Shown here: positions 1 through 15,515 of the stretch, piece after piece
Numbering within the stretch: the stretch's first letter is position 1
How the letters are laid out: the number at the start of each line of letters is the position of its first letter
IMG/VR virus record: IMGVR_UViG_2778261454_000010
Coordinates: 1 to 16,094 of that record
Source of the DNA: a virus
Taxonomy: Duplodnaviria > Heunggongvirae > Uroviricota > Caudoviricetes
Length of the DNA stretch: 16,094 nt
Strand: one strand, 5' to 3'
The notes under the pieces: generated by a model
Told to the model about the DNA's origin: nothing
Seen by the model: the letters and a program-made list of their open reading frames with translations, nothing else
Database searches by the model: none
Program-made: the position numbers and the translations under genes

Positions 1-714
1 TCAGATTATAACCTTCTTCCAGTCTAATCCTCGGTCGTCAGCGTACTCGTCACTCATCCCATCAGTTGTATGACCGAGCAATGTTTTCACATCAATTCCC
101 TGCTTCTTGTATAGCCTCGAAGAGAGAGATCTCTGCTCATGAAAAGATGGTGGTGTGGACCCAGCAGGGAACTTCAGTCCTGATTCGTCTCTCGCGGTGT
201 AAAAATAGCGTGATATTGAGTTAACCTTGATTTTACCGCCAGGTAAGGCTGATCCATGAGCGACGGTATGATGTACAAGATATTTGCTGACTACACCGTC
301 TCTACACCTTGCTACTACTTCTCTCAACGACATGCCGATAGCATCAAGCCTCAGTGATAAAGGGATAGCAACCTTCGAGCCTGTCTTGTTCTGGTTGATG
401 TGGAGGTGATCATCCCAAATATCAGAGAACTTTAGGTCTACAATATCGCCCGCTCGCTGCCCTGTAACCAACGCCAGAAGCATCGCGTTTTGAGCTGCAT
501 CCTGCATCCTCTCGGCGTGCTCATAAATAATCTTCCACTCTTCAAGTGTCAGGCGTTTACGCTTCACCTTAGCAACAGGATTTCTGGCAGCTAATGCCGG
601 ATTGTAACCTGGTGGAACCTCGCCAGCATGTTGCGCTTCCTTGAAGACGTCGTTTAAAACAGCCCTGACAAGCTGCCCTATCGCAGGTACGCTCTTCGCC
701 TTCTTTGTGCCAGG
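1..714 (-). pseudogene. int: Lambda-family tyrosine integrase, C-terminal catalytic region only (about 140 N-terminal residues missing)
   Basis: The minus-strand frame is open from 714 to a TGA stop at 3..1. The translation (..KRLTLEEWKIIYEHAE..LLALVTGQRAGDIVDLKFSDI..HEQRSLSSRLY..LLGHTTDGMSDEYADDRG) aligns by eye with the lambda Int catalytic domain. An in-frame TAG lies at 715-717 and there is no in-frame ATG; the only possible start is GTG at 565-567. Confidence 0.8.
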
Positions 715-997
715 CTACAACGTCGGCCACTGGCTCGGCGTTAACTACCGGTGCTGGCGGGGCGGTGTATAGCGGCAAACCTTGCCCACCGCCTGAGAAT
801 TGGTTATGTCCGTTATATTCAATTTCGTCACCGTGAGCACATACCCACGCCACAGGCTCGGCGTCCATTGCCGCCAGCGCGATACGGAAAACCTGAGCCG
901 TCATGCTGTTTTCTGAGTGCTCATCGTGAGCCGGGTCAGTGAGAAAGCCCGTGATGAATACTCGAAGCTCATGCTCTTTTGTGATTGGGGTTGTCAT
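569..997 (-). CDS. Hypothetical protein; the first ~95 residues look protein-like, the C-terminal ~45 residues are read out of frame across the integrase 5' region
   Basis: Six-frame ORF whose 3' portion (569-714) overlaps the integrase frame in a different phase and translates to a Cys/Arg/Gln-rich tail (..RTCDRAACQGCFKRRLQGSATCWRGS..). The start overlaps the stop of the upstream HNH gene (994-997). Confidence 0.3.
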   Translation of the reverse strand: MTTPITKEHELRVFITGFLTDPAHDEHSENSMTAQVFRIALAAMDAEPVAWVCAHGDEIEYNGHNQFSGGGQGLPLYTAPPAPVVNAEPVADVVAWHKEGEERTCDRAACQGCFKRRLQGSATCWRGSTRLQSGISCQKSCC

Positions 998-1701
998 ATT
1001 TTACCGTTCTCCAGTTTTTCTCCCTCGCCAAAAAAATCTCCGTGATACTTTCTCCTAGCTTCCATAGAAACAAGGCCTGCAAGCTCAATATCATCGTACA
1101 ATCCAAGGGATAGCTTCCTGCCATCAACGCCGATTGTTACGTACCATTTGGAAAACTTTTTATGCCAACTAACACCTTTAATTCCGCTAGTGTTGTGTGA
1201 ATGAACCTTCTGGTTTCTTGCGTTGTCTGCCCTACTTGCGTTTCTCAGGTTTATCCATCTGTCATCATTTCTTACTCTATTGATATGATCCGCTTCTGTA
1301 GGGAATTTCCCGGGCATATACAGAAATGCAAGCCTTCCTGCTTTATATTCCTTACCATTAATTTTTATATGCCTATATCCAGTGTGATGAATGCACCCAG
1401 CGATATCTCCACACTTAAAACCTCCCTTTGTATTTTTAATCCGAGTAAATACACCTGTATCTGGGTTGTAATGCAGATGCTCTTTCAAGACGTCCTGAGT
1501 TACCAGCGCCAGCACGTTGGCTGGCGTCGCTTCATCGTGAAATGAGTTAAGCGCCGTTATGTCCGCATCAAGCTGGGTGCCTTCAGCGAGTGAGATATCG
1601 AAAAGATCGCCCTCTGGCATCACGCTCAGACGCTCATACGCTCCCGTCGCGTTCAGCGCCGCCGCTTTCATACGCTGCGCCAGTTCTGTTGTCATGCTCA
1701 T
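994..1701 (-). CDS. HNH endonuclease (HNH_3-like motif) with a C-terminal AP2-like DNA-binding segment; phage homing-endonuclease-like
   Basis: ATG at 1699-1701 is preceded by GGGAGG and overlaps the TGA of the upstream 69-aa gene (ATGA). The translation carries ..GYRHIKINGKEYKAGRLAFLY..EADHINRVRNDDRWINLRNASRADNARNQ.. (HNH-type) and ..GIKGVSWHKKFSKWYVTIGVDGRKLSLGLYDDIELA.. (AP2-like). Confidence 0.75.
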   Translation of the reverse strand: MSMTTELAQRMKAAALNATGAYERLSVMPEGDLFDISLAEGTQLDADITALNSFHDEATPANVLALVTQDVLKEHLHYNPDTGVFTRIKNTKGGFKCGDIAGCIHHTGYRHIKINGKEYKAGRLAFLYMPGKFPTEADHINRVRNDDRWINLRNASRADNARNQKVHSHNTSGIKGVSWHKKFSKWYVTIGVDGRKLSLGLYDDIELAGLVSMEARRKYHGDFFGEGEKLENGKI

Positions 1702-1907
1702 GCTGCCTCCCAGCAAATCTGAGTTTTATAGACGCTCTTAACGCGTTGCACTTTTCCGGCAACTTCAAGCTTCTTCAGTCTGCGCAATACGTATGCGGTA
1801 TCGAGAGGTCGGTAGTTATCTCGAAGCCAGTTCGTCACTACGTAGGTCATGCAGCGACCATGCTCATTCAGCACCTGAATGATTTCTTCATCGGTTGGCT
1901 TGTTCAT
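1698..1907 (-). CDS. Small hypothetical protein, 69 aa (possible winged-helix DNA-binding fold, inferred)
   Basis: ATG at 1905-1907 is preceded by CGAGGAG with an 8-nt spacer, directly after the methyltransferase TAA. Its stop overlaps the HNH gene start. The sequence (..MTYVVTNWLRDNYRPLDTAYVLRRLKKLEVAGKVQR..) looks helical and basic. Confidence 0.5.
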   Translation of the reverse strand: MNKPTDEEIIQVLNEHGRCMTYVVTNWLRDNYRPLDTAYVLRRLKKLEVAGKVQRVKSVYKTQICWEAA

Positions 1908-1922
1908 GCTGCTCGCTCCTCG

Positions 1923-2660
1923 TTATTCACCATCACACAGCATGGAGAATGCTGCCGCTGCCACTCTTGGAACTTGTCCATTGCCAAGGGCTTTAATTCT
2001 GTCCACCCGATGGGCCACCCCATGAACCACTCGACCCATTCCGGGTTCAACTGTCCATCCTGGGGTGGCTGCGACCCATCTGGAAGTGGACGCATCTTTA
2101 TTGCACTTGGCAAGTCCGGAGTTCTGCGTAAGCGCTCGCTTGGACAATCGCCCCGTATTGTTGCTTTCGCTGTAGGCCACAATCCACATCCTGTCTCTTT
2201 CATGGGGCGCTCCGCAGTTCGATGCTGAAATACGAAACCACTCACAGCCACACCCCATTTCGGCAAGGTTACCAATGACCACTGCAAGGCCTTTTCCTCT
2301 GAGTCGCGGCGAATTTTCCACGCAGACGAATGCAGGTCGTACCTCACTGACGATTCTCGCCATTTCTGCCCACAGTCCAGAACGGCGTCCATTGATGCCG
2401 GCACCATGACCATTTGCGCTAATGTCCTGGCATGGAAACCCGCCAGATATGACATCAACAATCCCTCTCCACGGCTTTCCGTCAAAACTGCACACGTCAG
2501 ACCAAATCGGGAAAGGGCGGAGAATTCCATCGTTTTGTCGTTGCGCGAGAACTTGTGCTGCGTAGGCATCACGTTCAACTGCGCATACTGTTCGCCAGCC
2601 AAGGAGATGCCCTCCGAGTATTCCTCCGCCAGCGCCTGCGAAAAGAGCCAACTCATTCAC
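1923..2660 (-). CDS. DNA (cytosine-5)-methyltransferase, small phage-type enzyme of about 245 aa
   Basis: GTG start at 2658-2660 with GGAGGT five nt upstream, overlapping the TGA of the upstream ORF. Motifs read in order: I ..ELALFAGAGGGILGG.., IV ..GGFPCQDIS.., VI ..FVCVENSP.., VIII ..GAPHERDRMWIVA.., X-like ..RIKALGNGQVPRVAAAAF... Stop TAA at 1923-1925. Confidence 0.85.
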   Translation of the reverse strand: MNELALFAGAGGGILGGHLLGWRTVCAVERDAYAAQVLAQRQNDGILRPFPIWSDVCSFDGKPWRGIVDVISGGFPCQDISANGHGAGINGRRSGLWAEMARIVSEVRPAFVCVENSPRLRGKGLAVVIGNLAEMGCGCEWFRISASNCGAPHERDRMWIVAYSESNNTGRLSKRALTQNSGLAKCNKDASTSRWVAATPGWTVEPGMGRVVHGVAHRVDRIKALGNGQVPRVAAAAFSMLCDGE

Positions 2661-3015
2661 CGTTACCTCCGCGCAGCTGCCTTGCCAGATATTCAAGAGC
2701 CATTGCCGGAACGCCGACATGTCCTGTGCACGCAAATTTCGTGAGCAAATGCTCAATGGCTTTATCAACACCCCGCGCCTCAGCTTCTCGCAGGATGCTG
2801 TCTGTTGCCGGAGTTTCATGACAGGCACACAGCAATTCATGAATTGTCTGCATATCGACAATATCGCCGTCCGGCTGCTGTGTTAAATTCCACCGCTTAT
2901 AAATCTGGACTGACTCATCAGCCAGTAATATCGCCGCCGACTTAATCGCCAAATTCTCAGCCACCAAAGCCTTCAAATGCTCCTGCAACTCCACACCCTG
3001 TGGACAGTTCGTCAC
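2653..3015 (-). CDS. Hypothetical phage early-region protein, probably 5'-truncated at the 3060-3075 junction
   Basis: The frame is open upstream to 3072 with no ATG; the annotated start is GTG at 3013-3015. The TGA stop overlaps the methyltransferase start. No recognisable motif. Confidence 0.4.
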   Translation of the reverse strand: MTNCPQGVELQEHLKALVAENLAIKSAAILLADESVQIYKRWNLTQQPDGDIVDMQTIHELLCACHETPATDSILREAEARGVDKAIEHLLTKFACTGHVGVPAMALEYLARQLRGGNGE

Positions 3016-3072
3016 TTCACGCGCTTTCTCAATCGTTGAGTGTGCTGCTGTTAGTTCGCCTGCATGGTCGAG

Positions 3073-3314
3073 TTACCGGTCTCACCAATTACCGTGATTG
3101 CGGTAATGGTCTGAAGATTGACCTGGTTACTAACCCTGAACTGCTGGAGAAAGACATCAATGCCGCGCGTTCTGCTGCATGGTTCTATGCCTCCAAAGGT
3201 TGCCTGAAGTACACCGATGACCTGGTGCGCATCACTCAGATTATCAATGGCGGGCAGAACGGCATTAACGACAGACGCGTGCGTTACGCCAAAGCGAAAG
3301 CGGTGATTGCATGA
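3073..3314 (+). pseudogene. Endolysin remnant: C-terminal ~80 aa of a GH19 (chitinase-like) phage lysozyme; catalytic N-terminal part missing
   Basis: The translation ..TGLTNYRDCGNGLKIDLVTNPELLEKDINAARSAAWFYASKGC..ITQIINGGQNGINDRRVRYAKAKAVIA matches the conserved C-terminal block of GH19 endolysins as I recall it. Upstream in-frame sequence (3000-3070) is not protein-like and overlaps the minus-strand ORF. The stop overlaps the spanin start (ATGA at 3311-3314). Confidence 0.6.
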
Positions 3315-3589
3315 GCATTGTAGAAATCATCATTGGTGTCATTGGCGCTATCTGTGTTGCCGCTGCTAGTGGGTTTGGTCTTGGCCACATTCACGGTACC
3401 AGCAAAGCAGAAGCGAAAGCCGATCAACAACGCACTGAAGAAAACGCTGCCGCCATGAAAAAAGCTGCAGATCGTTGTGTGGAAGTCATCAAGGAGACAA
3501 GAGATGTGCAGGAGAATGTTAGTCGCATGCCTGATGACGATGTTGATCGCGAGCTGCGCGAAAACTTCACCCGCCCCGGTGGTGATTGA
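3311..3589 (+). CDS. Rz-like inner-membrane spanin (i-spanin)
   Basis: The N-terminus (MSIVEIIIGVIGAICVAAASGFGLG) is a single hydrophobic TM helix, followed by a charged, helical periplasmic segment. It sits directly after the endolysin remnant with ATGA coupling. Confidence 0.6.
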   Translation: MSIVEIIIGVIGAICVAAASGFGLGHIHGTSKAEAKADQQRTEENAAAMKKAADRCVEVIKETRDVQENVSRMPDDDVDRELRENFTRPGGD

Positions 3590-3716
3590 TACCGGTTGCC
3601 TGTGGGCACGGATTGTCTATCTGACCAACAGCGATATTGACCTGCTGGATAAGCAGACGAAGCGCGACATCCTAGCGCATAACAAAGCGTGGCAGGCGAA
3701 CTGTCAGAAAAAATGA
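3504..3716 (+). CDS. Rz1-like outer-membrane lipoprotein spanin (o-spanin), overlapping the i-spanin in the +1 frame
   Basis: ATG at 3504 with AAGGAG seven nt upstream. The N-terminus MCRRMLVACLMTMLIASC carries a lipobox (I-A-S-C) and the mature part is Pro-rich. It begins inside the Rz-like gene and extends past its stop. Confidence 0.55.
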   Translation: MCRRMLVACLMTMLIASCAKTSPAPVVIDTGCLWARIVYLTNSDIDLLDKQTKRDILAHNKAWQANCQKK

Positions 3717-3731
3717 ACTAATTAATGCAGT

Positions 3732-4319
3732 TTATAAAAAAATCTCTTCTGCGCATAAAAGATAACTTTCGTAAAAAGTTATCCCAAGCTCTGCAATAAC
3801 TATTGGATTTTTAGAATTCACTTCTTGTCCTAAGTGCGACTGAGGAGGGTTGTATGTGATCCCACGGTTACGACATGGAACTGCCTCTACTGAGCTTTGA
3901 GTAACTTCAACTCTCATTGGTGAGCCTGGAACGATTGTTGCACCACCATTACTATCAAATGAAATTGATTTGATGTGAACCATGCCACCTTGCTTTTCTG
4001 GATAGATACTAAACCCGCCAGGAACATATTTAGAGGTATCAGCAATCCCATGATGTGCTGAATTTCTGGCTTGCTTGAGATAGATGAGTAAACTATCAGA
4101 ATCACGCAGGTAGTTTGTTTTTGATGAAAATGAAGGGTATTTCTTGTGCTGCGCAGCAGCTACTTTTATCTTACCGTATACGTTTTCAATGCGGCTCAAA
4201 AAATCGCTCCAAGCCTCATCGTACTCATCATATGACTTAGCATTCTTCATACGCTCAACGCAGCGCTTTGCTCTTACCAATTCTTTTCTTGAAGGAAGTA
4301 AGTCCATTACCGTCACCAT
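3732..4319 (-). CDS. Orphan hypothetical protein (195 aa) in an AT-rich cargo segment; function unknown
   Basis: Long ORF on the minus strand, convergent with the spanin genes. Sampled 60-nt lines in this segment are about 38-42% G+C versus about 55-67% in the structural genes. No signal peptide, TM segment or assignable catalytic motif. Alternative ATG at 4305-4307 has GGTGA upstream. Confidence 0.6.
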   Translation of the reverse strand: MVTVMDLLPSRKELVRAKRCVERMKNAKSYDEYDEAWSDFLSRIENVYGKIKVAAAQHKKYPSFSSKTNYLRDSDSLLIYLKQARNSAHHGIADTSKYVPGGFSIYPEKQGGMVHIKSISFDSNGGATIVPGSPMRVEVTQSSVEAVPCRNRGITYNPPQSHLGQEVNSKNPIVIAELGITFYESYLLCAEEIFL

Positions 4320-4444
4320 TTTTAGTAGAAATGAAAAGCAAAGCTAACTCTTCATGAAACTTTAATCAATTAGCCAATAACCGAACTACAAATTATCCCC
4401 ACAAACGGATAAGACAATCAATATACCCTCTAAAGGATAAAACT

Positions 4445-4645
4445 ATGACGCCATTAGTTCTGACAGCAGAGCAGATAAAATCTCTTGCAGAATTTGCGGA
4501 GCAGGAAGGTCAGCCGTTCTATACCATCACCCACTCAACCATCCCTGAGTTTGAATCAGAAAGTGGTGATGTTGTTCCGGCATATGAAGGGCTGATTGCC
4601 TACTCAGAGTCAGAGGAACACGGCGTTCTTCAGCTCGACGACTGA
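4445..4645 (+). CDS. Small, highly acidic hypothetical protein (66 aa; about 14 Asp/Glu against 1 Lys)
   Basis: ATG at 4445 with AAGGA about seven nt upstream. The translation is MTPLVLTAEQIKSLAEFAEQEGQPFYTITHSTIPEFESESGDVVPAYEGLIAYSESEEHGVLQLDD. First gene of a short operon that ends at the terminator at 4978-5000. Confidence 0.5.
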   Translation: MTPLVLTAEQIKSLAEFAEQEGQPFYTITHSTIPEFESESGDVVPAYEGLIAYSESEEHGVLQLDD

Positions 4646-4684
4646 ACTGCCATTACAGAAGCTCTTCATTCAGGGGCTTCGATA

Positions 4685-4960
4685 ATGACCTTGAAATCTA
4701 TGGCCTTATCCGAGCATACTTTAGCAACCCTCCGTGTTGGTGGGGTGTTAAAGGGGATTGTTATGCTTGATAATTATTTCTACGATAAAAGTGGTTTTGA
4801 GCAAAAAGACGAAGTTAAGCGAGAAAAAGCAGTAGCTGCTGTACTTGAAATCCTTAAAGTTTCTGCTGGTCACTCACCAAGCCACGTAATTATTAGTGCT
4901 CTTAAGAACGAAGTAAATGAAGCAGCGGATGCGATTCAAGGAGCATTGGATAAAAAGTAA
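4685..4960 (+). CDS. Hypothetical protein (91 aa), second gene of the cargo cassette
   Basis: ATG at 4685 with AGGGG eight nt upstream. The sequence is helical and Lys-rich at the C-terminus. Followed 18 nt downstream by a strong intrinsic terminator. Confidence 0.5.
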   Translation: MTLKSMALSEHTLATLRVGGVLKGIVMLDNYFYDKSGFEQKDEVKREKAVAAVLEILKVSAGHSPSHVIISALKNEVNEAADAIQGALDKK

Positions 4961-4977
4961 CTGAGATGAAATAACAT

Positions 4978-5000
4978 AAACCGCCTATGGGCGGTTTTTT
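4978..5000 (+). terminator. Rho-independent terminator
   Basis: Perfect 8-bp stem AAACCGCC / GGCGGTTT with loop TATG, followed by a T-run to 5000. Confidence 0.75.
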
Positions 5001-5136
5001 ACTGCCATCACTGTGGGTAGGCTCATCCTAATAGCAATATCCCCCGCAAGGGATAATTAACGTGATATCCCCGTCGGGGGATAAAATCATATTTAAGCCA
5101 CTGGTATCCGCTGGTGGCTTTTTTATTGGAGTGAAT

Positions 5137-5427
5137 ATGGCATCCAATTCACCGTGGCATAGCCTCTATAATTCCAAGCGCTGGTACCGACTCCGATATC
5201 ACCAGCTTCAGAAGCAGCCTCTCTGCGAGTTCCACCTCCGGCGCAATCAGGTTATAGCCGCCACGATCGTTGACCATATCACCCCGCACAAGGGTAACGA
5301 GGCGCTATTTCATGACCAGGACAATCTTCAGTCACTCTGCAAACGTTGCCACGACTCGGTAAAGCAGAGGATGGAGAAGGGTGGAACGGTCACCGAGTTC
5401 GATAATAAAGGCCGTGTTATCTGGTAA
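5137..5427 (+). CDS. HNH endonuclease, packaging-associated (HK97 gp74-like position next to the terminase genes)
   Basis: ATG at 5137 with GGAG five nt upstream. HNH signature in the translation: ..CEFHLRRNQVIAATIVDHITPHKGNEALFHDQDNLQSLCKRCHDSVKQ... Located immediately upstream of TerS and TerL. Confidence 0.8.
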   Translation: MASNSPWHSLYNSKRWYRLRYHQLQKQPLCEFHLRRNQVIAATIVDHITPHKGNEALFHDQDNLQSLCKRCHDSVKQRMEKGGTVTEFDNKGRVIW

Positions 5428-5439
5428 CAGGAGTAGTTG

Positions 5440-5649
5440 ATGCAAGACATGAAGATTGAATACCGTGATGGGAAGTTGATTGAGTTGAGCATTGATAGCG
5501 TGAGCTTTAAACATGCCACTGCAGTCTCCTTCAATCATGAGGTCGTTGAGATGCTGCCTACCATTACCCTCACATTGCCAATCGGCGTTGGTGATCGTCT
5601 GGTGCCCTCTGGCATACCTCACTCAAGCTTACACGTAATTGAGAAATGA
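5440..5649 (+). CDS. Small hypothetical protein (69 aa) between the HNH and TerS genes
   Basis: ATG at 5440 with AGGAG six nt upstream. No recognisable motif. Confidence 0.4.
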   Translation: MQDMKIEYRDGKLIELSIDSVSFKHATAVSFNHEVVEMLPTITLTLPIGVGDRLVPSGIPHSSLHVIEK

Positions 5650-5769
5650 TATCAATTCTCATATTTATTTTGGTAAGGGAGGGGGTGGGATAAAACTCTG
5701 GTACCAAATTCTTAAAGACCGCGCCCTCAACTCTTTTTTTAAAAACGTCCAGAAAAAAAGGAAAAACCG

Positions 5770-6204
5770 ATGGCACAGCGAGGCAGAAAGTCTCTGGCTG
5801 CGACGTCTGCTGTCTCGTTGCCGGCACTGGCTGAAAGCAGGCTGCAGCCGTCCATTCATCTGAGCGATCCGGAAATTAATGTATGGGTAAGGCTCGTTAA
5901 TGACAATCCAGCTAGTTCATTCACTGAAACTCATCGAGACATGATGGAGATGTACTGCCGCCATGTTGTTCAGGCCAGAATAATCACCACTCAGCTTGAA
6001 GAGTTTGAACTGGAGTGGCTATCGCGCGAGGACGGACTTAAGCGGTACGACAAGCTTCTTGCCATGCGCGAGCGTGAAGTGCGTTCGGCATCTTCACTGG
6101 CAACACGTTTAAGGATCACCCGCCAGGCTACTGCCGACCCAAAAACAGTTGGCCGAGCGCACAACAATCTGGCTCGGGAGAAAAAACCCTGGGAAATTGA
6201 TTAA
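5770..6204 (+). CDS. Terminase small subunit (P27/HK97 gp1-like, by position and N-terminal basic segment)
   Basis: ATG at 5770 after an A-rich AAGGA region. The N-terminus MAQRGRKSLAATS.. is basic. The gene lies directly upstream of the large terminase gene. Confidence 0.7.
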   Translation: MAQRGRKSLAATSAVSLPALAESRLQPSIHLSDPEINVWVRLVNDNPASSFTETHRDMMEMYCRHVVQARIITTQLEEFELEWLSREDGLKRYDKLLAMREREVRSASSLATRLRITRQATADPKTVGRAHNNLAREKKPWEID

Positions 6205-6213
6205 GGCTCTTTG

Positions 6214-7746
6214 ATGGCAAAAAAAAATCTGACAAGAGCCGAGAGAAATATTCTCTGGTGCGAAAGAAATATTGTTATTCCTGAAGGAAAGTTCGTGGGC
6301 CAGCCACTGAAAATGGCTGAGTTCATGAAGGATGATTTTAGGGCTATTTTCGATAACAAGCATGGCACACGTCGCGCAATTATCAGCCGTGGGCGAAAGA
6401 ACGCCAAAACGGTAGAGACCGCCATGCTGATGCTGCTCTACCTGGTGGGGCCGGAGGCGGCGCCGAACTCGCAGCTGTATTCTGCCGCACGCTCGCGTGA
6501 CCAGGCGGCCATTCTGTTTAACCTGGCCTCCAAGATGTGCCGGATGAATCCGGTGCTCATGCAGTATGTGGCGATAAAGGACTCGGCGAAAGAAATTCAC
6601 TGCCCCGAACTGGGTTCTTATTATCGGGCGCTGAGCGCAGAGGCCACGACTGCCTATGGTTTCTCGCCTCGATTTGTCGCGCATGATGAACTGGGACAGG
6701 TTCGTGGGCCCCGTGATCCCCTTTATGAAGCACTGGAAACTGCGACTGCTGCTCAGGATAACCCTATCTCGGTGATTATCAGCACTCAGGCGCCCGATGC
6801 GAGCGATCTACTCAGCCTGCTGATTGATGATGGACTGACCGGTGCTGACCCGCGCACGGTGGTCCGTCTACAGACGGCCCCGGAAGATATCGATCCTTTC
6901 TCCGTTGACGCCATAAGGCTGGCAAACCCGGCCTTCGATGTGTTTATGAACCAGAAAGAAGTGCTTGATATGGCCGCCAGCGCGAAGCGCCTCCCGTCAC
7001 GACAGGCTGAGTTTGAGAACCTTGTGCTGAATCGCAGGGTTGAAGCTAAAAGTCCTTTCGTCAGTCAGACAGTCTGGCACATGAATAAAGAAGAACCCGG
7101 CGAACTGGCAGGGGCTACCGTCTGGGGCGGGCTGGACCTTTCCAGTGTCTCGGACCTTACCGCACTGGTACTCAACACAACCCAGGGTGATGTGCACTGT
7201 AAGTTCTGGCTACCTGAAGAGGGGCTGGCGGACAAGGCGCGTAACGATCGAGTGCCTTATGACATCTGGGCCAGGCAGGGTTTTCTCAATACGACACCCG
7301 GAAAGGCCATTGAATATGCATTTATTGCGCGCGAAATGCGGCGCGTTTTCGACATTTGCAATGTCAGGGCGCTGGCGTTCGACCGTTACAACATGCGTTT
7401 CCTTCGCCCACATCTAATAGACGCAGGATTCACGGAAACTGAGCTCGAGCGGTTCGTGGAATTCGGCCAGGGCTTTGTCTCCATGTCACCTGCGCTGAGG
7501 GAGCTGGAAGCCAAGCTACTCGGAGCGCAGCTTAAACATGGCAACCATCCGATCCTCGAAATGTGCGCCAAAAACGCCACGGTTATTTCTGATCCCGCCG
7601 GAAACCGAAAGTTTGTGAAAGGTAAATCAAGCGGGCGTATCGATGGAATGGTTGCTCTGGCGATGTCAATCGGCGCCCAGACGAGTGATGAGGTGGAGGA
7701 TCCAGGCGACGTCAATGATTTCATTTATAACTTCTTGAGCGTGTAA
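6214..7746 (+). CDS. Terminase large subunit (ATPase plus nuclease)
   Basis: 510-aa product with an ATPase region (..RFVAHDELGQV.. Walker-B-like) and a C-terminal nuclease region. Standard position after TerS. The ATG at 6214 is preferred over the TTG at 6211. Confidence 0.9.
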   Translation: MAKKNLTRAERNILWCERNIVIPEGKFVGQPLKMAEFMKDDFRAIFDNKHGTRRAIISRGRKNAKTVETAMLMLLYLVGPEAAPNSQLYSAARSRDQAAILFNLASKMCRMNPVLMQYVAIKDSAKEIHCPELGSYYRALSAEATTAYGFSPRFVAHDELGQVRGPRDPLYEALETATAAQDNPISVIISTQAPDASDLLSLLIDDGLTGADPRTVVRLQTAPEDIDPFSVDAIRLANPAFDVFMNQKEVLDMAASAKRLPSRQAEFENLVLNRRVEAKSPFVSQTVWHMNKEEPGELAGATVWGGLDLSSVSDLTALVLNTTQGDVHCKFWLPEEGLADKARNDRVPYDIWARQGFLNTTPGKAIEYAFIAREMRRVFDICNVRALAFDRYNMRFLRPHLIDAGFTETELERFVEFGQGFVSMSPALRELEAKLLGAQLKHGNHPILEMCAKNATVISDPAGNRKFVKGKSSGRIDGMVALAMSIGAQTSDEVEDPGDVNDFIYNFLSV

Positions 7747-7748
7747 AA

Positions 7749-9026
7749 ATGGCAGATACCGATTACAGCATTGACCTGCGAACGCGATCGCCATTCTGGG
7801 CGCGCATGGCCTCCATCCTGACAGGGGGCCGCCTTGTGACGCCTGACAAGGGCTCGCAGATGGCAGGAACGTCCGCGCACGGTGTGGTTGGCGACTCCGT
7901 AGTGACTGACGAGCGAAATATGCAAATCAGCACTGTGTGGGCATGCATCAGGCTTATCTCTACCGTGACCGCATCATTACCCCTTGATGTCTACCAGACC
8001 AAAGACAATCAGAGAAGCAAGGTACCTGGCACACACCCTCTCGCGAGGTTACTGCGCTTCCGTCCCAACAATTTCATGACCGCGCTGGAGTTTCGTGAGG
8101 CCATGACCATGCAGCTTTGTGCTTATGGAAACGCCTACGCGCATGTGGAGCGAAACAGCGTCGGCGACGTTATCAGCATGGTTCCGCTGATGAGCGCCAA
8201 TATGGAAGTGCGGCTCAGTGAAAACGGCAAAACCATTATCTACCGCTACCAGCGTGATACTGAATATGCCAATTTTTCGCAGAAAGAAATTTTCCATCTT
8301 AAGGGTTTTGGCTTCAACGGACTGACCGGCCTGTCTCCGCTGGCGTTCAGCGCGAAGTCTGCAGGTGTCGCCATTGCCATGGAAGACAATCAGCGTGAGT
8401 TTTTCGCAAACGGCGCGAAGTCTCCTCAGATTCTGATGACCGATGGCAAGGTGCTTACCAAAGAGCAGCGTGGACAGCTGGAGGAAAACTTCAAGGAGAT
8501 TGCTGGCGGCCCGGTTAAAAAGCGCCTCTGGATCCTGGAGAGCGGTTTTACGACTCAAGCTATTGGCGTCTCTCCTCAGGACTCGGAAATTCTGGCCGCG
8601 CGAAAGTTTCAGGTTGCCGAGCTGGCGCGGTTCTATGGTGTACCGCCGCACCTGGTCGGTGATGTGGAAAAAACAACATCGTGGGGCTCGGGGATTGAGC
8701 AGCAAAACCTGGGCTTTCTCCAGTACACCCTCAAGCCCTATCTCGATCGGTGGGAGTACAGCATTGAACGCTGGCTGGTTAAAGAGTCCGAACAGGGCAC
8801 TATTCACGCTGAGCATAACCTCGATGGGCTGCTGCGCGGTGATTCAACAAGCCGGGCATCGTTTATGCAGATCATGGTTAACACCGGGATCCGAACCGTT
8901 AACGAAGTGCGGCGACTGGACAACCTGCCGCCTCTGCCAGGGGGTGACGTTGCCACCCGCCAGTCGCAGAACGTACCCATTACCGACCTTGGAACAAACA
9001 ATAAGTCCCTCAATGAAGGGACTTAA
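7749..9026 (+). CDS. Portal protein (HK97 family)
   Basis: 425-aa ORF starting 2 nt after the TerL stop. Size, position and sequence character match HK97-type portals. Confidence 0.85.
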   Translation: MADTDYSIDLRTRSPFWARMASILTGGRLVTPDKGSQMAGTSAHGVVGDSVVTDERNMQISTVWACIRLISTVTASLPLDVYQTKDNQRSKVPGTHPLARLLRFRPNNFMTALEFREAMTMQLCAYGNAYAHVERNSVGDVISMVPLMSANMEVRLSENGKTIIYRYQRDTEYANFSQKEIFHLKGFGFNGLTGLSPLAFSAKSAGVAIAMEDNQREFFANGAKSPQILMTDGKVLTKEQRGQLEENFKEIAGGPVKKRLWILESGFTTQAIGVSPQDSEILAARKFQVAELARFYGVPPHLVGDVEKTTSWGSGIEQQNLGFLQYTLKPYLDRWEYSIERWLVKESEQGTIHAEHNLDGLLRGDSTSRASFMQIMVNTGIRTVNEVRRLDNLPPLPGGDVATRQSQNVPITDLGTNNKSLNEGT

Positions 9027-9031
9027 TTTTT

Positions 9032-9712
9032 ATGGGGGCCATGATGCCTGACATTCACAAAACACTGGCTTTTGACCAGACCGAAATTAAGTTCACCGGC
9101 GACGGTGAAAGCGGCATCTTTGAGGGGTACGCCTCCGTTTTTAATAATACTGATTCTGACGGCGATATTATCCTTCCCGGCGCATTCAGCGGTGTTATTT
9201 CCGGTCAGAGCCGTAAGGTGGCGATGTTCTTTAACCATCAGACGCGCGCTATCCCGGTCGGCAAATGGGATTCCATGCATGAGGATGAAAAAGGTTTGTT
9301 TGTCCGTGGGCAACTCACTCCAGGACTAAGCCTCTCTGAAGACCTGAAAGCGGCGATGAAACATGGCACCGTTGATGGGATGTCAGTGGGATTCTCTGTT
9401 GGCCCTGATGATTACACCGTTGGTTCGTCCGGCCTCATCTTCAAAAATATTTCGTATCTGCGGGAAATCAGTGTCTGCACTTTCCCGGCCAACGAGCTGG
9501 CGGGTATCACCGCCATGAAGTGCATCGACAGTATCAAAACCATTCGTGACGCGGAGGCCTGGCTGAGGGATTCAGTCGGCTTAACGCGCGCAGAAGCGCA
9601 GGCCTTTATTGCCCGCGTGAAGTCCGCAGGCCGGAGCGAGTCCGGTAGCGGCGACATTGACGCGCTGGCACAGCGCATAACTTCATTTGCCGCTAATCTG
9701 CGGAATACATAA
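9032..9712 (+). CDS. Prohead maturation protease (HK97 gp4-like)
   Basis: 226-aa ORF between the portal and capsid genes. The N-terminal region (..FEGYASVFNNTDSDGDIILPGAFSG..FFNHQTRAIPVGKW..) is typical of HK97-family prohead proteases. Confidence 0.85.
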   Translation: MGAMMPDIHKTLAFDQTEIKFTGDGESGIFEGYASVFNNTDSDGDIILPGAFSGVISGQSRKVAMFFNHQTRAIPVGKWDSMHEDEKGLFVRGQLTPGLSLSEDLKAAMKHGTVDGMSVGFSVGPDDYTVGSSGLIFKNISYLREISVCTFPANELAGITAMKCIDSIKTIRDAEAWLRDSVGLTRAEAQAFIARVKSAGRSESGSGDIDALAQRITSFAANLRNT

Positions 9713-9723
9713 CGGAGTACCAC

Positions 9724-10887
9724 ATGTCTGAATTAGCAACCCTCGAAAAAGCGATTGAGAATTCACAGAAAGAAGTGAAAGAACTCATCGAAGAGCAGCG
9801 TAAATCCATCAGCCAGAACGGCGAAATCAACAAACAGCTGCAGACCGACCTGACCAAAGCGCAGGAAGAGCTGAAAACCACCGGCTCCCGCCTGTTCGAT
9901 CTGGAACAGAAGCTGGCCGGAAACTCACCTGACCAGACCACCCAGAAGTCCTTTGCGGAGCGCGTTTCTGAAGACCTGATGAAAGGCTGGGACGGCTCCC
10001 GTACCAAAGCGAAAGTCACCAGTTTCGATAAGGCGATCGGTTCTGGCGCTGCATCCGCCGGTGTGCTTGTACAGCCCCAGCAGGTACCTGGTATTCTGAT
10101 GCCGGGCCTGCGTCGCCTGACCGTTCGTGACCTGCTGGCACAAGGGCGCATCACCAGTAACGCGCTGGAATATGTGCGTGAAAATGTGTTCACCAACGCC
10201 GCCGCACCGGTTGCTGAAGGTACCCTCAAACCAGAGAGTAATATCACGTTCACCAAAGAAACAGCGAATGTCAAAACCATTGCCCACTGGATCCAGGCAT
10301 CACGCCAGATTATGGATGACGCCCCGGCGCTGCAGTCCTATATCAACTCCCGCATGATGTACGGTCTCGCGCTGGTGGAAGAGAATCAGATGCTTAACGG
10401 TGATGGCACCGGCGACAACCTCCAGGGGTTGAACGTGGTGGCGAACGAATACGAAACCGCACTTAACGCGACCGGGGATACTGGTGCTGATGTTCTGGCG
10501 CATGCCATCTACCAGGTGTCGCTAAGTGAGTTCGAAGCCGACGGCATCATTCTCAACCCGGCTGACTGGCATCGCATCGCATTGCTGAAGGACGCCAATG
10601 GCAATTACATCCTCGGCGGCCCTCAGGCGTTTGCGTCAAAAGTGCTCTGGGGCCTGCCGGTTGTATCAACAACCGCGCAGACGGCAGGAAAGTTCACCGT
10701 TGGTGCATTTGGCCTGGCGTCTCAGGTGTGGGACCGCATGGATGCCACTATCGAAATCAGTAACCAGGATCGCGATAACTTCGTTAAAAACATGCTGACC
10801 ATTCTGTGCGAAGAGCGTCTGGCTCTGGCGCACTACCGTCCCGCAGCTATCGTCACTGGCGATATTGCGATTTCTTCCGGCGAATAA
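9724..10887 (+). CDS. Major capsid protein (HK97 fold) with N-terminal delta/scaffolding domain
   Basis: ATG at 9724 with GGAG upstream. The first ~100 aa form a charged coiled-coil-like region (delta domain), followed by a capsid-fold region (..AEGTLKPESNITF..). Standard position after the protease. Confidence 0.9.
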   Translation: MSELATLEKAIENSQKEVKELIEEQRKSISQNGEINKQLQTDLTKAQEELKTTGSRLFDLEQKLAGNSPDQTTQKSFAERVSEDLMKGWDGSRTKAKVTSFDKAIGSGAASAGVLVQPQQVPGILMPGLRRLTVRDLLAQGRITSNALEYVRENVFTNAAAPVAEGTLKPESNITFTKETANVKTIAHWIQASRQIMDDAPALQSYINSRMMYGLALVEENQMLNGDGTGDNLQGLNVVANEYETALNATGDTGADVLAHAIYQVSLSEFEADGIILNPADWHRIALLKDANGNYILGGPQAFASKVLWGLPVVSTTAQTAGKFTVGAFGLASQVWDRMDATIEISNQDRDNFVKNMLTILCEERLALAHYRPAAIVTGDIAISSGE

Positions 10888-10895
10888 CAGCAGGG

Positions 10896-10918
10896 CGCGG
10901 TCAGAAATGGCCGCGTTT
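10896..10918 (+). terminator. Weak stem-loop after the capsid gene (possible partial terminator)
   Basis: CGCGG - 10-nt loop - CCGCG followed by TTT. Short stem and short T-tract, so likely low efficiency. Confidence 0.3.
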
Positions 10919-10923
10919 ACGAT

Positions 10924-11166
10924 ATGAAAATTAAAGCTCTCCGTATGTTCTCACATTACCACCTCGGAACTGTATCCCAAGGCGAGAGCCGGGTGGTGAA
11001 GAAAGAGATCGGCGACGCGCTGGTGAAACTGCGCCTTGCCGAAGAGATTGAACCCGAAAAGGCGGAAACTTCCGTTCCTGAAAAGCCTGTAAAAACCAAA
11101 GCCGGGGGTAAAGGTGGAAATAAGCGCGGAGCAGATGGCGCTGATAAAGGCGCATCTGAGGGTTGA
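10924..11166 (+). CDS. Small hypothetical protein after the capsid gene (Lys/Gly-rich C-terminus)
   Basis: 80-aa ORF with no clear Shine-Dalgarno sequence. Its 3' end overlaps the start of the connector gene. Confidence 0.35.
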   Translation: MKIKALRMFSHYHLGTVSQGESRVVKKEIGDALVKLRLAEEIEPEKAETSVPEKPVKTKAGGKGGNKRGADGADKGASEG

Positions 11167-11440
11167 TAGTGACGCTGAAGATTCGCTAATCACCGCTTAT
11201 ACATCAGCGGCCGTCGATTATGTTGAGCAGTTCTGCGACGGCGCGCTGGTGGAATCGTTAACGCCGCCGGAGGAAGGGGAAATGCCACCTCGTGAGATCC
11301 TGTTTACTCCCGGTATCTGGGCAGCAATGCTTTTGCTGATTGCACACTGGTATGCGAACCGCGAAGCAGCAGCGCAGAACCTCACGGAAATGCCTTTAGG
11401 TGTTGAGGCGCTGTTAATACGGCACCGGAGGTGGCACTGA
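11114..11440 (+). CDS. Head-tail connector (gp6-like adaptor) protein
   Basis: Translation ..EISAEQMALIKAHLRVDSDAEDSLITAYTSAAVDYVEQ.. matches the characteristic N-terminus of gp6-like connectors. The start is uncertain: GTG at 11114 or ATG at 11135. Confidence 0.65.
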   Translation: MEISAEQMALIKAHLRVDSDAEDSLITAYTSAAVDYVEQFCDGALVESLTPPEEGEMPPREILFTPGIWAAMLLLIAHWYANREAAAQNLTEMPLGVEALLIRHRRWH

Positions 11441-11500
11441 TGGCATGTTCCGGGTGCGCCGCCCGTCGAGAGTGGCTTAAAAAGTGGATGAAAATCGCCT

Positions 11501-11686
11501 ATGAACGAGCAACAGGTAAAAAATCTGCTGGCAGCAATGACCGCGCAGACCAACGCAATGAACCGCCTGGCGGAGTCAAATGAAGCCCTGGTCGCTTTAC
11601 TCTATCAATCCCTCGCTGATGACATCGAAACGACAACGTTAGATTCCCCGGTGCCGACCTACCTAAGCGGAAAGCCCAGGGGGTAG
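11501..11686 (+). CDS. Small hypothetical head-tail region protein
   Basis: 61-aa helical ORF whose TAG stop is immediately followed by the ATG of the head-closure gene. Weak ribosome-binding site. Confidence 0.35.
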   Translation: MNEQQVKNLLAAMTAQTNAMNRLAESNEALVALLYQSLADDIETTTLDSPVPTYLSGKPRG

Positions 11687-11688
11687 CG

Positions 11689-12021
11689 ATGCAGGCTGGA
11701 AAGCTCAATAAACGAATCACGCTTCAGAAGCCTGTTAAAACCCAGAGCCCTGTTACCGGCGCAGTAGTTAGTGGATGGGCTGATGTGTCTGAGCTTTGGG
11801 CTAACGTTGCCGATTTGTCAGCCCGTGACTTTGTTGCCGCGCAAGCGGGGCAGAGCGAGGTAACAACGCGGATCACTATCCGCTGGCGTGATGATGTCAC
11901 GGATAAGCATCGCATTCTTTACCGTGGGCGTGTTTACGACATTCAGGGTGTACTGGAAGATGATAAAAGCGGACGGGAATATCTGACGCTACCCTGCTCG
12001 CGAGGTGTTAACGATGGCTGA
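11689..12021 (+). CDS. Head closure / head-tail joining protein (SPP1 gp16-like)
   Basis: ATG at 11689 with AGGGGG upstream. The translation ..KRITLQKPVKTQ..TRITIRWRDDVTDKHRILYRGRVYDIQGV..LTLPC.. fits the family pattern. Confidence 0.65.
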   Translation: MQAGKLNKRITLQKPVKTQSPVTGAVVSGWADVSELWANVADLSARDFVAAQAGQSEVTTRITIRWRDDVTDKHRILYRGRVYDIQGVLEDDKSGREYLTLPCSRGVNDG

Positions 12022-12553
12022 TGGCATTGATTTTAGTATAACCGGGGTCGATTCACTTCTGGGGAAGCTGGACAGTATCAGCGATGATCTGCGCCGCCGT
12101 GGTGGTCGGGCAGCACTTCGTAAGGCGGCAAATGTGATTGCCGCTAAAGCCAGAGATAACGCAGCCCGTGTGGATGATCCGCTAACCAAGGAATCGATTA
12201 GCAAAAATATTGTGGCCAGATGGAGCAATGTTACATTCCGAAGAACCGGTAATCTGGCTTTCAGGGTTGGCGTTTTGGGCGGAGCCATTTCGTATGCTGA
12301 TTCAAGAGAAAACAGGCGGAAAGGTCGTGCGGGAAGATTGTATTACACCCCCGGCAATTCACAAAATCCAGGCGGGAATACCTGGTACTGGCGTTTTTTG
12401 GAGTTTGGCACAGAAAATATGCCAGCCCAGCCCATTCTTCGCCCGGCAGCGCAAGGCAGTGTGGACGAAGTGGTAAGCGTATTCGCCTCGGAATACGAAA
12501 AGTCTATTGACCGTGCCATCAGGCGCGCGGCGAAAAAAGGAGTACCCCCGTGA
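12014..12553 (+). CDS. HK97 gp10-like head-tail/tail component protein
   Basis: ATG at 12014 with GAGGTG six nt upstream, overlapping the end of the previous gene. Size and position are consistent with the family. Confidence 0.6.
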   Translation: MADGIDFSITGVDSLLGKLDSISDDLRRRGGRAALRKAANVIAAKARDNAARVDDPLTKESISKNIVARWSNVTFRRTGNLAFRVGVLGGAISYADSRENRRKGRAGRLYYTPGNSQNPGGNTWYWRFLEFGTENMPAQPILRPAAQGSVDEVVSVFASEYEKSIDRAIRRAAKKGVPP

Positions 12554-12915
12554 TTGCGCCGATCTTTATCGTCTGCGCCGCAAGTCCTCCGGTGGTTGCG
12601 CTACTGGGCGGTGACACACTGCGCCTGTATCCGTTCGGCCAGCAGGACGACAACGTGGTCTATCCCTATGTGGTCTGGCAGAACATCACCGGTTCTCCGG
12701 AGAACTACCTTGCCCAGCGCCCTGATGCAGACTTTTTCACGCTGCAGGTGGATGCATATGCCGACACAGTGGATGAAGTGATTGCCGTGGCTACTGCGCT
12801 GCGGGATGCCATTGAGCCGCACGCGCATATCACGCGCTGGGGCGGACAGGAAAGAGATCCCGAAACAAAACGCTATCGCTATTCGTTCGATGTGGACTGG
12901 ATAGTCAATCGATAA
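12550..12915 (+). CDS. Tail completion / tail terminator protein (DUF3168-like)
   Basis: GTG at 12550 overlaps the upstream TGA, with AAGGAG eight nt upstream. 121-aa product in the expected slot before the major tail gene. Confidence 0.55.
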   Translation: MIAPIFIVCAASPPVVALLGGDTLRLYPFGQQDDNVVYPYVVWQNITGSPENYLAQRPDADFFTLQVDAYADTVDEVIAVATALRDAIEPHAHITRWGGQERDPETKRYRYSFDVDWIVNR

Positions 12916-12925
12916 GAACCTTCCC

Positions 12926-12949
12926 AACCGGCCTTGAGCCGGTTTTTTT
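12926..12949 (+). terminator. Rho-independent terminator
   Basis: Stem AACCGGC / GCCGGTT with loop CTTGA, followed by a run of seven T. Confidence 0.7.
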
Positions 12950-12966
12950 ATGACCGGAGATAATAA

Positions 12967-13464
12967 ATGTCTGTATTAACTCAAGGCACACAACTCTTTG
13001 TGCTTGCCAGTGGCGCGGTGAGCGAAATCGAGTGTATCACTGCATTTTCGCCTGGTAGTAACCCTGCCGACCAGATTGAAGACACGTGTCTTTCTGAAAA
13101 GTTTGACCGCTCCTATAAGCGGGGCCTACGAACTCCCGGGACCGCCTCACTCACTCTGAATGCCGACCCAAAAAATACCAGCCACGTGATGCTGCACAAC
13201 CTGTCGATTTCCGATGATGAGAGCGATCAGGATCTGACGTTTGCGATTGGCTGGGCCGATGGTACAGCGTCACCAACAGTTGCTACCGAAGAGGCAAGCG
13301 GTGCTGTTGATGGGCTGGTGCTCCCGGACAGCCGTACGTGGTTTGTTTTTAAAGGTTACGTCTCCGACTTCCCTTTTGATTTTGCAGCAAACACGGTCGT
13401 CTCCACCTCCGCATCTATCCAGCGTTCCGGTTCTGCGGTGTGGGTTCCTAAGGCAGCTTCTTAA
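12967..13464 (+). CDS. Major tail (tube) protein
   Basis: ATG at 12967 with GGAGA upstream. 165-aa beta-rich protein in the position immediately before the G/G-T chaperone genes. Confidence 0.6.
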
Positions 13465-13468
13465 ACTG

Positions 13469-13487
13469 ATGGGGCTTGATGCCCCAT
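13469..13487 (+). promoter_or_regulatory. Stem-loop between the major tail and chaperone genes
   Basis: ATGGGGC - TTGAT - GCCCCAT, a 7-bp perfect stem followed by TTTC; a possible attenuator or partial terminator. Confidence 0.3.
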
Positions 13488-13501
13488 TTCGAGAGACAAA
13501 A

Positions 13502-13987
13502 ATGAAATTAACGCTTGAAGCACTCAAGGAGTCCGGCGCGTTTACCGGCCGTCCGGTTGAGAAAGAGATATCCTGGAAACAGGGCGATAAGAAAATCACT
13601 GCGACCGTGTATGTTCGCCCGATGGGGTATCACACAGCGACGTCCGATGTACTGGCATTTGGGGGTAAGGTGGATGGTGTGGCAGGACGCATTGCAGCAT
13701 CTATCTGCGATGAACTGGGTAAGCCTGTCTTCACCCCGGCAGACATCACTGGTGAGGCCGACCCTGAGCGTGGTGCGCTGGATGGTGGTCTGACGGTTGC
13801 GCTACTGTTGGCTATTCAGGAAGTTAACGATCTGGGAAAGACTTCGAGCTCAGCGCCGAAGACGAATTCTGGTGCGAGCTCGTCCTCAACGGAATCGGAG
13901 GTAAAACGATCGCCGAAGCGCGTGAGTCGCTCTCATTCAAAGAGTCCCAGCTCTGGGCAAAATACCGGGAAAGATATGGAAGCCTGA
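13502..13987 (+). CDS. Tail assembly chaperone G (zero-frame product)
   Basis: ATG at 13502. Contains the slip heptamer G_GGA_AAG at 13834-13840 in the correct phase. The zero-frame sequence after the slip site is Ser-rich and low-complexity. Confidence 0.7.
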   Translation: MKLTLEALKESGAFTGRPVEKEISWKQGDKKITATVYVRPMGYHTATSDVLAFGGKVDGVAGRIAASICDELGKPVFTPADITGEADPERGALDGGLTVALLLAIQEVNDLGKTSSSAPKTNSGASSSSTESEVKRSPKRVSRSHSKSPSSGQNTGKDMEA

Positions 13988-14211
13988 ACCCGATGATGCG
14001 GGTTGAGTGGGGGGCTGGGCTGGTGGCCAGCATGATAGCCAACGTCAACAGAGACCCCAAACATCCACCATTCACTCCGACCGATTTCACACTGCACTTC
14101 ACCAAAGTCAAAGCTGTTGATGGGCCAATCTCGTTATGGGGATCGGCGTTGAAAACACGCCCAGCGGCATGCAGTCGCAGGTTGTTTTCCTCGCTGACCG
14201 CTTTGCAGTGA
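13502..14211 (+). CDS. Tail assembly chaperone G-T fusion, made by programmed -1 ribosomal frameshift at 13834-13840
   Basis: The -1 frame is open from 13840 to the TGA at 14209-14211 and encodes protein-like sequence (..DFELSAEDEFWCELVLNGIGGKTIAEARESLSFKESQLWAKYRERYG..). The architecture matches lambda G/G-T. Confidence 0.6.
13834..13840 (+). other. Programmed -1 frameshift slippery heptamer GGGAAAG
   Basis: Exact X_XXY_YYZ heptamer (G GGA AAG) positioned in the G reading frame; the same heptamer is used by lambda G-T. Confidence 0.75.
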
Positions 14212-14495
14212 CAACGGCTGTCGGCGGCGTGACGACGCTACCGTTCGTTATTCAGAACGGGCAGACGATAATCCGGGATACAGTAATCGGTGATGGAACT
14301 ATCAGCAACGCCAAAATCGGTAACTACATTCAGTCCAATAACTATGTCGCGAACACCAGCGGCTGGCACATCAATAAAGCCGGAACATTTTATATAAATG
14401 GCAGCGCGGGAACCGGTCGGATGGTTATCAGTAATACATTGATTCAGATTTACGATAACAACAACGTTCTGCGCGTTCGTATGGGCTTATGGTAA
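14121..14495 (+). pseudogene. C-terminal fragment of a tail protein (central fibre / host-specificity J-like or tail fibre), with no start of its own
   Basis: The frame opens right after a TGA at 14118-14120, has no Shine-Dalgarno sequence, and encodes ..FLADRFAVTTAVGGVTTLPFVIQNGQTIIRDTVIGDGTISNAKIGNYIQSNNYVANTSGWHINKAGTFYINGSAG.. (beta-rich, fibre-like). It occupies the slot where a tape-measure gene should begin. Confidence 0.35.
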
Positions 14496-14505
14496 GGAGT
14501 TGATT

Positions 14506-15443: not shown

Positions 15444-15476
15444 CGATATAGTCGGTTCAAACATTTATTAAACTTC

Positions 15477-15500
15477 AAACCCGCTCCGGCGGGTTTTTTT
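15477..15500 (+). terminator. Rho-independent terminator
   Basis: Perfect 8-bp stem AAACCCGC / GCGGGTTT with loop TCCG, followed by a run of seven T. Confidence 0.75.
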
Positions 15501-15515
15501 ATGTCTGGAGTAAAT

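Follow-up and report, generated by a model that had tools for sequence, protein, structure and literature searches.

A gene junction in a cryptic Escherichia coli prophage as the probable scar of a 10,813-bp deletion between its early-left and lysis regions

The stretch of DNA considered here, a viral record of 16,094 nucleotides (nt) from IMG/VR (IMGVR_UViG_2778261454_000010, positions 1 to 16,094; hereafter the window), very probably represents a cryptic Escherichia coli prophage of lambdoid organisation with an HK97-type head, which lies between yeaH and yeaI. At position 3073/3074 of this element a leftward early gene abuts an endolysin gene, and we are highly confident that this point marks where 10,813 bp were deleted in one event of illegitimate recombination. 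The deletion (D3 in the following) would have joined codon 33 of the leftward early gene to codon 124 of a rightward GH19 endolysin gene, leaving the remains of the two genes head to head.

The evidence that carries this reading comes from an intact version of the same prophage (hereafter the parent), found at the same chromosomal site in the E. coli assembly GCA_012619805.1 (contig AASXDH010000003.1, from which our loci L008, L012 and L017 were taken), with an identical copy in SRR6068312. It was reached through exact-protein look-ups with the proteins of the window, which returned two kinds of contig, namely those with the same junction and those with the intact prophage. A megablast search of window positions 2400-3800 against 5,426 complete E. 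coli genomes and a phage collection gave no record spanning the junction or the intact parent, the matches being limited to a relative at 79% identity (L001, from E. coli F467) and to partial hits in the methyltransferase (Dcm) and spanin genes. An exact scan of a contig collection (one genome per species) with a junction-spanning 50-mer gave 0 matches, and is uninformative either way. To the left of the intact prophage are genes with MASE4-GGDEF, GAPES1-GGDEF and tRNA_edit domains, which by synteny with K-12 we take to be of the yeaI/yeaJ/yeaK type, and to its right are genes with DUF444, PrkA and MipA matches, presumably, on the same grounds, of the yeaH/yeaG/mipA type.

When the window is compared by BLAST with the composite intact sequence, it falls into five collinear blocks (Table 1), the identity of the fourth being measured over 3073-13589 and 14030-14136, with 13590-14029 corresponding to a gap between fetched loci. 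Compared base by base, the left parental sequence at D3 ends at contig position 14715 and the right one begins at 25527, with two nucleotides (TT) common to both. More specifically, the left parent reads ...GGTCGAG-TT-TACGCACC..., the right parent ...ATTCAGA-TT-ACCGGTCT... and the window ...GGTCGAG-TT-ACCGGTCT..., and no more than 2 substitutions in 10.5 kb separate the prophage DNA from the intact copy. The sequence on either side of the junction runs collinear with a single intact prophage, and what the window lacks is one contiguous internal segment, as in a defective prophage produced by internal deletion. A sequence-only reading of the window had proposed that a deletion joined the early-left and lysis regions, with about 10 kb of genes normally intervening, and had raised the matter of microhomology at the breakpoint. 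The deletion is borne out, both flanks being 100% identical to a single contig on which they lie 10,813 bp apart; alignment to the intact prophage has placed its two endpoints to the base, and the overlap amounts to the 2 nt given above.

The gene on the left of the junction belongs to phrog_492 (function unknown), which it matches over profile positions 73-175 of 195, and some relatives in that family carry names such as ead or Ea22-like. Its native form has 171 amino acids (aa; protein P0001), within a family whose members range from 115 to 235 aa, and of these 171 codons the window keeps numbers 33-171, with 100% identity over all 139 residues. The native start, 32 codons upstream, is deleted. 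The minus-strand frame that ends at 2653 is open back to 3072 and is closed by an in-frame stop at 3073-3075; its first possible start is a GTG at 3015, which gene callers use to annotate a 120-aa product. The gene had already been described as truncated, with an open frame and no proper start: the truncation and the open frame stand, and the missing start has to be corrected, as the GTG at 3015 is usable and it is the native start that is gone.

On the right of the junction, DNA homology to endolysin genes begins exactly at window position 3073, to the base where the earlier reading had put it approximately; from there onward the relative L001 aligns at 79%, and for the intact parent (L008) the match is 100% from 3073 to 13589, which corresponds to contig positions 25527-36043. 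Translation of the plus strand gives protein-like sequence from 3075 ('TGLTNYRDCGNG...'), and the fragment 3075-3311 matches the PHROG endolysin family phrog_181 (E = 2.4e-32), its match to Pfam Glyco_hydro_19 (E = 0.002) being below the curated cut-off. Codon 124, at the join, is itself chimeric (ATT changed to GTT). The intact parental endolysin (L008 9393-10004) is a Glyco_hydro_19 protein of 203 aa that matches the structure of the SPN1S endolysin over its full length (4OK7, E = 6.9e-82), so that the parental gene is a homologue of an SPN1S-type GH19 endolysin with an Rz/Rz1 cassette, of which the window keeps only the last 79 codons. GH19 endolysins require two catalytic glutamates in their N-terminal part, and in LysO78 the catalytic residues, likewise N-terminal, were assigned by mutagenesis and by superposition on SPN1S to E54 and E64 (PMC8229158). 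Counted on the 4OK7 alignment, the corresponding glutamates of the parental protein are E49 and E58 ('GHES...VENF'), both of which are in the deleted part.

The fragment therefore descends from a GH19 (SPN1S-type) endolysin, given the phrog_181 match and the 100% DNA identity to the 3′ end of the parental gene, and it starts at codon 124/125, without E49 and E58. With 79 of the 203 codons left and the catalytic pair gone, the truncated endolysin would be inactive, as had been proposed. Read in its native frame, the fragment also lacks a start codon. What can be translated is a chimeric open reading frame (ORF) of 104 aa on the plus strand (3000-3314), which opens with about 24 codons read antisense to the left gene and continues as the endolysin tail; annotation pipelines call it as a gene of 90 aa or 104 aa (L002, L010). 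It appears to be a by-product of the deletion and, as far as the evidence goes, meaningless.

The contents of the missing segment can be read from gene calls and Pfam matches on the intact contig (L008, L012). Apart from the first 32 codons of the 171-aa early-left gene at one end and endolysin codons 1-123 (the catalytic N-terminal 60%) at the other, they comprise (i) a 98-aa gene, (ii) a cI-type repressor (HTH and Peptidase_S24), cro and a CP76/cII-like gene, (iii) a DUF4222 gene and a Phg_2220_C replication protein, (iv) an MT-A70 methylase, a LexA_DNA_bind protein and RusA, (v) a pRha/ANT protein (antirepressor-like) and a DUF968 gene, (vi) the Q antiterminator (DUF1133/Phage_antitermQ), (vii) a 66-aa gene and an SDH-type protease gene, and (viii) two holins (Phage_holin_8 and Phage_holin_3_7). 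Lost with them are the intergenic regions in which one would look for pL/pR and the late promoter. The functions of the lytic cycle (the repressor/cro switch, replication, Q, holin and active endolysin) are absent from the window and are all in the parent's deleted segment. The ORF listing and the Pfam and PHROG scans, from which the content of the window was read, show no repressor, replication, antiterminator (Q) or holin gene anywhere in it, in agreement with the sequence-only reading, and in intact relatives all of these sit between the two breakpoints. L001, an intact relative at 79-85% identity, has the same overall full lambdoid order (RefSeq annotation), which indicates that the long form is the normal architecture of the family; together with the 100% identical parent, this rules out the possibility, left open by that reading, that the gene order of the window is native to an unusual phage.

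Among the other ways in which such a junction could arise, the best placed, and still very unlikely in our judgement, is a larger rearrangement, in which the segment was inverted or translocated and is still in the genome, or in which two resident prophages recombined. E. coli often has several recombining lambdoid prophages, and the comparison covered fetched loci and not whole source genomes, which leaves some room for this explanation. Yet one and the same parent matches both flanks of the junction at 100%, collinearly and without a change of orientation, the element has the same chromosomal neighbours as the intact prophage, and an overlap of only 2 nt is a poor fit to homologous recombination between prophages.

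There is hardly any likelihood that the gene order is instead native to a distinct mobile element, such as a phage satellite or capsid-forming island. By way of background, capsid-forming phage satellites (cf-PICI) have head-morphogenesis and packaging genes without a complete tail or lysis module, and the window, with a complete terminase-portal-protease-capsid-connector module and no tail-tip genes, superficially resembles them; it too has head and packaging genes and no complete tail or lysis module. It differs in lacking a regulator, a replication module and an integrase/excisionase pair of its own, int being truncated and xis deleted, and in that its gaps can be traced to deletions from a phage that was intact until recently: the missing tail genes mark a further deletion, which has left a fragment of the tail gene J, and both genes bordering D3 are fragments of full-length genes that are present, 100% identical, in the intact prophage at the same site. 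Identity of 100% to a complete phage over 10.5 kb also leaves no time for an independent lineage, and the satellite reading was rejected on these grounds.

It is just as improbable that the polarity is the reverse, i.e. that the short form came first and the 'intact' prophage acquired its additional 10.8 kb later, through insertion or recombination. The short form has been sampled more often (at least 20 contigs, compared with 5 contigs carrying the full-length 171-aa protein), but an insertion would need to complete two truncated genes precisely, many full-length homologues of both genes exist (in the family of the 171-aa protein, and for the endolysin in its full-length match to 4OK7), and the long form has the canonical lambdoid order also seen in L001. 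Finally, a chimeric join of two prophage fragments by an assembler, the misassembly considered in the sequence-only reading, has next to no chance of being the explanation: one Logan contig (L004) does end exactly at another junction of the element (window 679), but an identical 30-mer across D3 recurs in 13 of the fetched loci, which represent 10 independent samples (GCA_037105485.1, GCA_035826215.1, GCA_002518125.1, the JGI metagenome 3300056440 and six SRA runs) that passed through different pipelines (NCBI, JGI and Logan data), and the junction is internal to contigs of up to 272 kb. In one of these samples, contig NODD01000014.1 of GCA_002518125.1 equals the window at 100% over all sequence compared (L030, L023).

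Several points weigh against the deletion as we describe it, or limit how far it can be taken. A 2-nt overlap at a single junction is no more than chance would give (about 16% by our own calculation), so the mechanism of breakage is not established, and microhomology was rejected as the mechanism for D3 taken alone. That the element is non-inducible and its genes promoterless, as set out below, is inferred from the genes it contains and from a simple consensus scan. The missing 10.8 kb may also exist as a copy elsewhere in the genome, for example in another prophage. Furthermore, the host flank of the intact prophage differs by 0.6-0.8%, which makes that prophage a sister of the true ancestor and not the literal ancestor.

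Deletion by illegitimate recombination remains our reading, and D3 is one of four deletion scars in the window (Table 1), which together account for 22,162 bp lost relative to the parent. D1 has removed the 5′ half of int, xis, genes of 86 aa and 166 aa and part of a 168-aa gene, leaving a 3′ fragment of int (1-682) and a chimeric 142-aa ORF, and has the same structure in GCA_002518125.1 (L030). At D2 a 185-aa Ead/Ea22 gene, cut off after its first ~66 codons, continues in frame into the C-terminal part of a 173-aa HNH gene, and pipelines call the resulting 235/240-aa hybrid as a normal gene. D4 has taken the tape measure gene, the gpM-, gpL- and gpK-like genes, a KilA-N gene, two small genes and about 1,027 codons of J, of which a 119-aa fragment remains.

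Table 1. Features of the window, with the deletion scars (D1 to D4) and the blocks collinear with the intact prophage. Positions are those of the window, except where the contig of the intact prophage is named.
Feature	Position	Strand	Remarks
Block 1	1-682		contig 9521-10202; 99.85% identity
Block 2	679-1502		contig 11956-12779; 100% identity
Block 3	1501-3074		contig 13142-14715; 100% identity
Block 4	3073-14136		contig 25527-36590; 100% identity
Block 5	14135-16094		contig 45817-47776; 100% identity
D1	679-682		1,757 bp lost; 4-nt overlap TATC
D2	1501-1502		364 bp lost; 2-nt overlap TA
D3	3073-3074		10,813 bp lost; 2-nt overlap TT
D4	14135-14136		9,228 bp lost; 2-nt overlap TA
Integrase C-terminal ORF	1-567	minus	188 aa; catalytic C-terminal half only
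142-aa ORF	569-997	minus	chimera running out of frame into int sequence
HNH/AP2 ORF	994-1716	minus	235/240 aa; HNH_3/AP2 match confined to C-terminal part
69-aa gene	1698-1907	minus	
C5 cytosine methyltransferase (Dcm), alpha	1923-2660	minus	245 aa; Pfam DNA_methylase 1e-30
Dcm, beta	1904-2656	minus	250 aa; +1 frame, begins 4 nt downstream of alpha start
Early-left gene remnant	2653-3072	minus	139 3′ codons and stop
Endolysin tail	3075-3314	plus	codons 125-203 of 203 and stop
Rz	3311-3589	plus	
Rz1	3534-3716	plus	
195-aa gene	3732-4319	minus	reverse-oriented, between lysis and packaging modules
HNH, small and large terminase, portal, protease, capsid, connector and tail-tube genes	downstream	plus	
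J tail fragment	14136-14495		119 aa

Relatives of the window allow some of these events to be placed in order. Three haplotypes, A (the window, L004 and L030), B (e.g. L009, L010 and L016) and C (L011), all share D3 and differ in their other left-end deletions. Type B shares both D2 and D3 and has, instead of D1, a 584-bp deletion within int (10-nt overlap) and a 1,091-bp deletion. In type C, int and xis are intact, and a 3,222-bp deletion has removed the HNH and Dcm genes and most of the fragment of the 171-aa gene. A further locus (L024, from GCA_964205775.1) is more eroded, everything from int to portal and part of the capsid gene being gone; it shares D4, and the site of D3 is no longer present. 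The D4 scar itself was verified in L018, L022, L023 and L024 as well as in the window (type A).

Types A, B and C are 99.98-100% identical to each other in their chromosomal flanks, against 99.2-99.4% in the comparison with the flank of the intact-prophage strain. A single E. coli host lineage, as defined by these nearly identical flanks, holds at least four erosion states of the same prophage, represented by L009, L011, L024 and L030 when set against L012. On the simplest reading of these haplotypes, D3 would be a single ancestral event in one host lineage, followed by continuing independent erosion: the phage would have lysogenised one lineage, D3 would have occurred once, and different pieces of the left end would then have been lost independently in the descendants. 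The timing of D2 and D4 relative to D3 cannot be ordered from the haplotype data. All of this erosion is recent, because the prophage DNA is so little diverged from the intact copy (the ≤2 substitutions given above).

Short-homology recombination that does not depend on RecA, by replication slippage or end joining, is an established route to deletions in general. Nine distinct junctions have been mapped in this lineage, each with an overlap of 2-10 nt, and overlaps of at least 2 nt at all nine are suggestive of such short-homology illegitimate recombination, through which the deletions may have formed, for instance by replication slippage or end joining. As for the extent of D3, a deletion that removes the repressor would be survivable only if the replication and killing functions were also removed or silenced, and this would explain why D3 spans the segment from the pL side through the lysis cassette.

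From its gene content, the remnant could be expected neither to be repressed nor to be induced, and it should be unable to replicate, to activate late transcription or to lyse the cell. There is a strong case that the element is non-inducible, since it has lost the functions from cI through Q to the holins with D3, xis and the 5′ half of int with D1, and those from the tape measure to J with D4. The late genes that remain (Rz, Rz1, terminase and head) and the early-left genes would be without their phage promoters. A consensus scan of the plus strand from 2400 to the spanin genes, which is a weak test, predicted no sigma-70-like promoter, and in a promoter and terminator scan of 2400-4500 sites were no more frequent than in shuffled sequence.

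The spanin genes, as the earlier reading had it, are retained: Rz, Rz1 and the head genes are untouched. Rz encodes an intact Rz-like inner-membrane spanin of 92 aa (phrog_1026, 3e-27), with an identical protein and 100% DNA identity in L008, and Rz1, which overlaps the end of Rz, an intact Rz1-like outer-membrane lipoprotein spanin of 60 aa with the lipobox MTMLIASC. The family match of the latter (phrog_1275, 1.7e-31) was obtained on a longer ORF (3477-3716), the 60-aa call being made at L008 10224-10406. The lysis cassette of the parent consists of two holin genes followed by the endolysin and the overlapping Rz/Rz1 pair, and in the window an Rz/Rz1 pair identical to the parent's is now orphaned, having neither holin, endolysin, Q nor late promoter.

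Two other features of the window are described for their own sake. The methyltransferase region (1904-2660, minus strand) appears to be dual-coding, with two same-strand ORFs, alpha and beta, that overlap almost fully, and pipelines annotate just one of the two frames. In phages of Salmonella, Acinetobacter, Pseudomonas, Microcystis and Ralstonia (L025-L029) neither frame is interrupted and both can still be recognised as conserved, even through lineage-specific inserts; the third frame of these methyltransferase sequences contains 10-28 stops, and synonymous shuffles of alpha produce 3-9 stops in the beta frame. The C-terminal end of beta ('LNPEWVEWFMGWPIGWT') is motif-IX-like as judged by eye. 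In M.EcoHK31I, a heterodimeric C5 methyltransferase, beta lies within another frame of alpha and supplies motif IX, and alpha carries the catalytic motifs (PMC2836561). In layout, alpha and beta of the window match the published M.EcoHK31I architecture, which makes the pair a candidate for a heterodimer of that type. At the nucleotide level, the region 1880-2680 is 73-79% identical to phages of very distant hosts (Pseudomonas, Ralstonia, Acinetobacter and Microcystis), and a short stretch of it matches Lacticaseibacillus phages. Conservation of DNA over such a breadth seems unusual, and it would fit the constraint expected from two overlapping frames.

The second feature is the reverse-oriented 195-aa gene, which is in a moron position and has a promoter-like site upstream at 4421-4392. 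Its sole family match is phrog_23516, a family of unknown function, and PADLOC, NCBIfam and Pfam yielded nothing beyond phrog_23516 for this gene or for ORFs of 66 aa and 91 aa. It is intact in every deletion haplotype looked at. There is a slim chance that the remnant is retained in its lineage because some of the surviving genes are useful to the host, and is not merely decaying; candidates may include this moron with its promoter-like site, the alpha/beta Dcm methyltransferase and possibly the head module. If that were so, one could read the nested deletion states (haplotypes A, B, C and L024) as a natural time series of domestication in which only the harmful modules are removed.

E. coli K-12 has cryptic or defective lambdoid prophages formed by internal deletion, for example DLP12, Rac, Qin and e14. 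Like the window, these are remnants fixed in the chromosome, from which deletions cutting into the adjoining genes have taken the immunity, replication and lysis functions, and they decay stepwise while keeping some modules. They are much older and more mosaic, whereas in the window a 100% identical parent lets every breakpoint be mapped to the base, and sister haplotypes show the order of events. D3 is an already known kind of event, i.e. ordinary though unusually well resolved prophage decay by the standard route to cryptic lambdoid prophages.

For annotation this means that (i) the element should be scored as a non-inducible remnant and (ii) the 120-aa, 90/104-aa, 142-aa, 235-aa and 119-aa 'genes' called by pipelines are products of truncation or fusion and are best flagged as pseudogenes. 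Biologically the case is of a familiar kind, and its value is that of a clean worked example, with a 100% identical parent and three or four sister haplotypes in one lineage. It shows the order of decay that is expected of such prophages, in which one large deletion of the immunity, replication and lysis regions is followed by smaller, independent losses (of int/xis and other genes), with overlaps of 2-10 nt.

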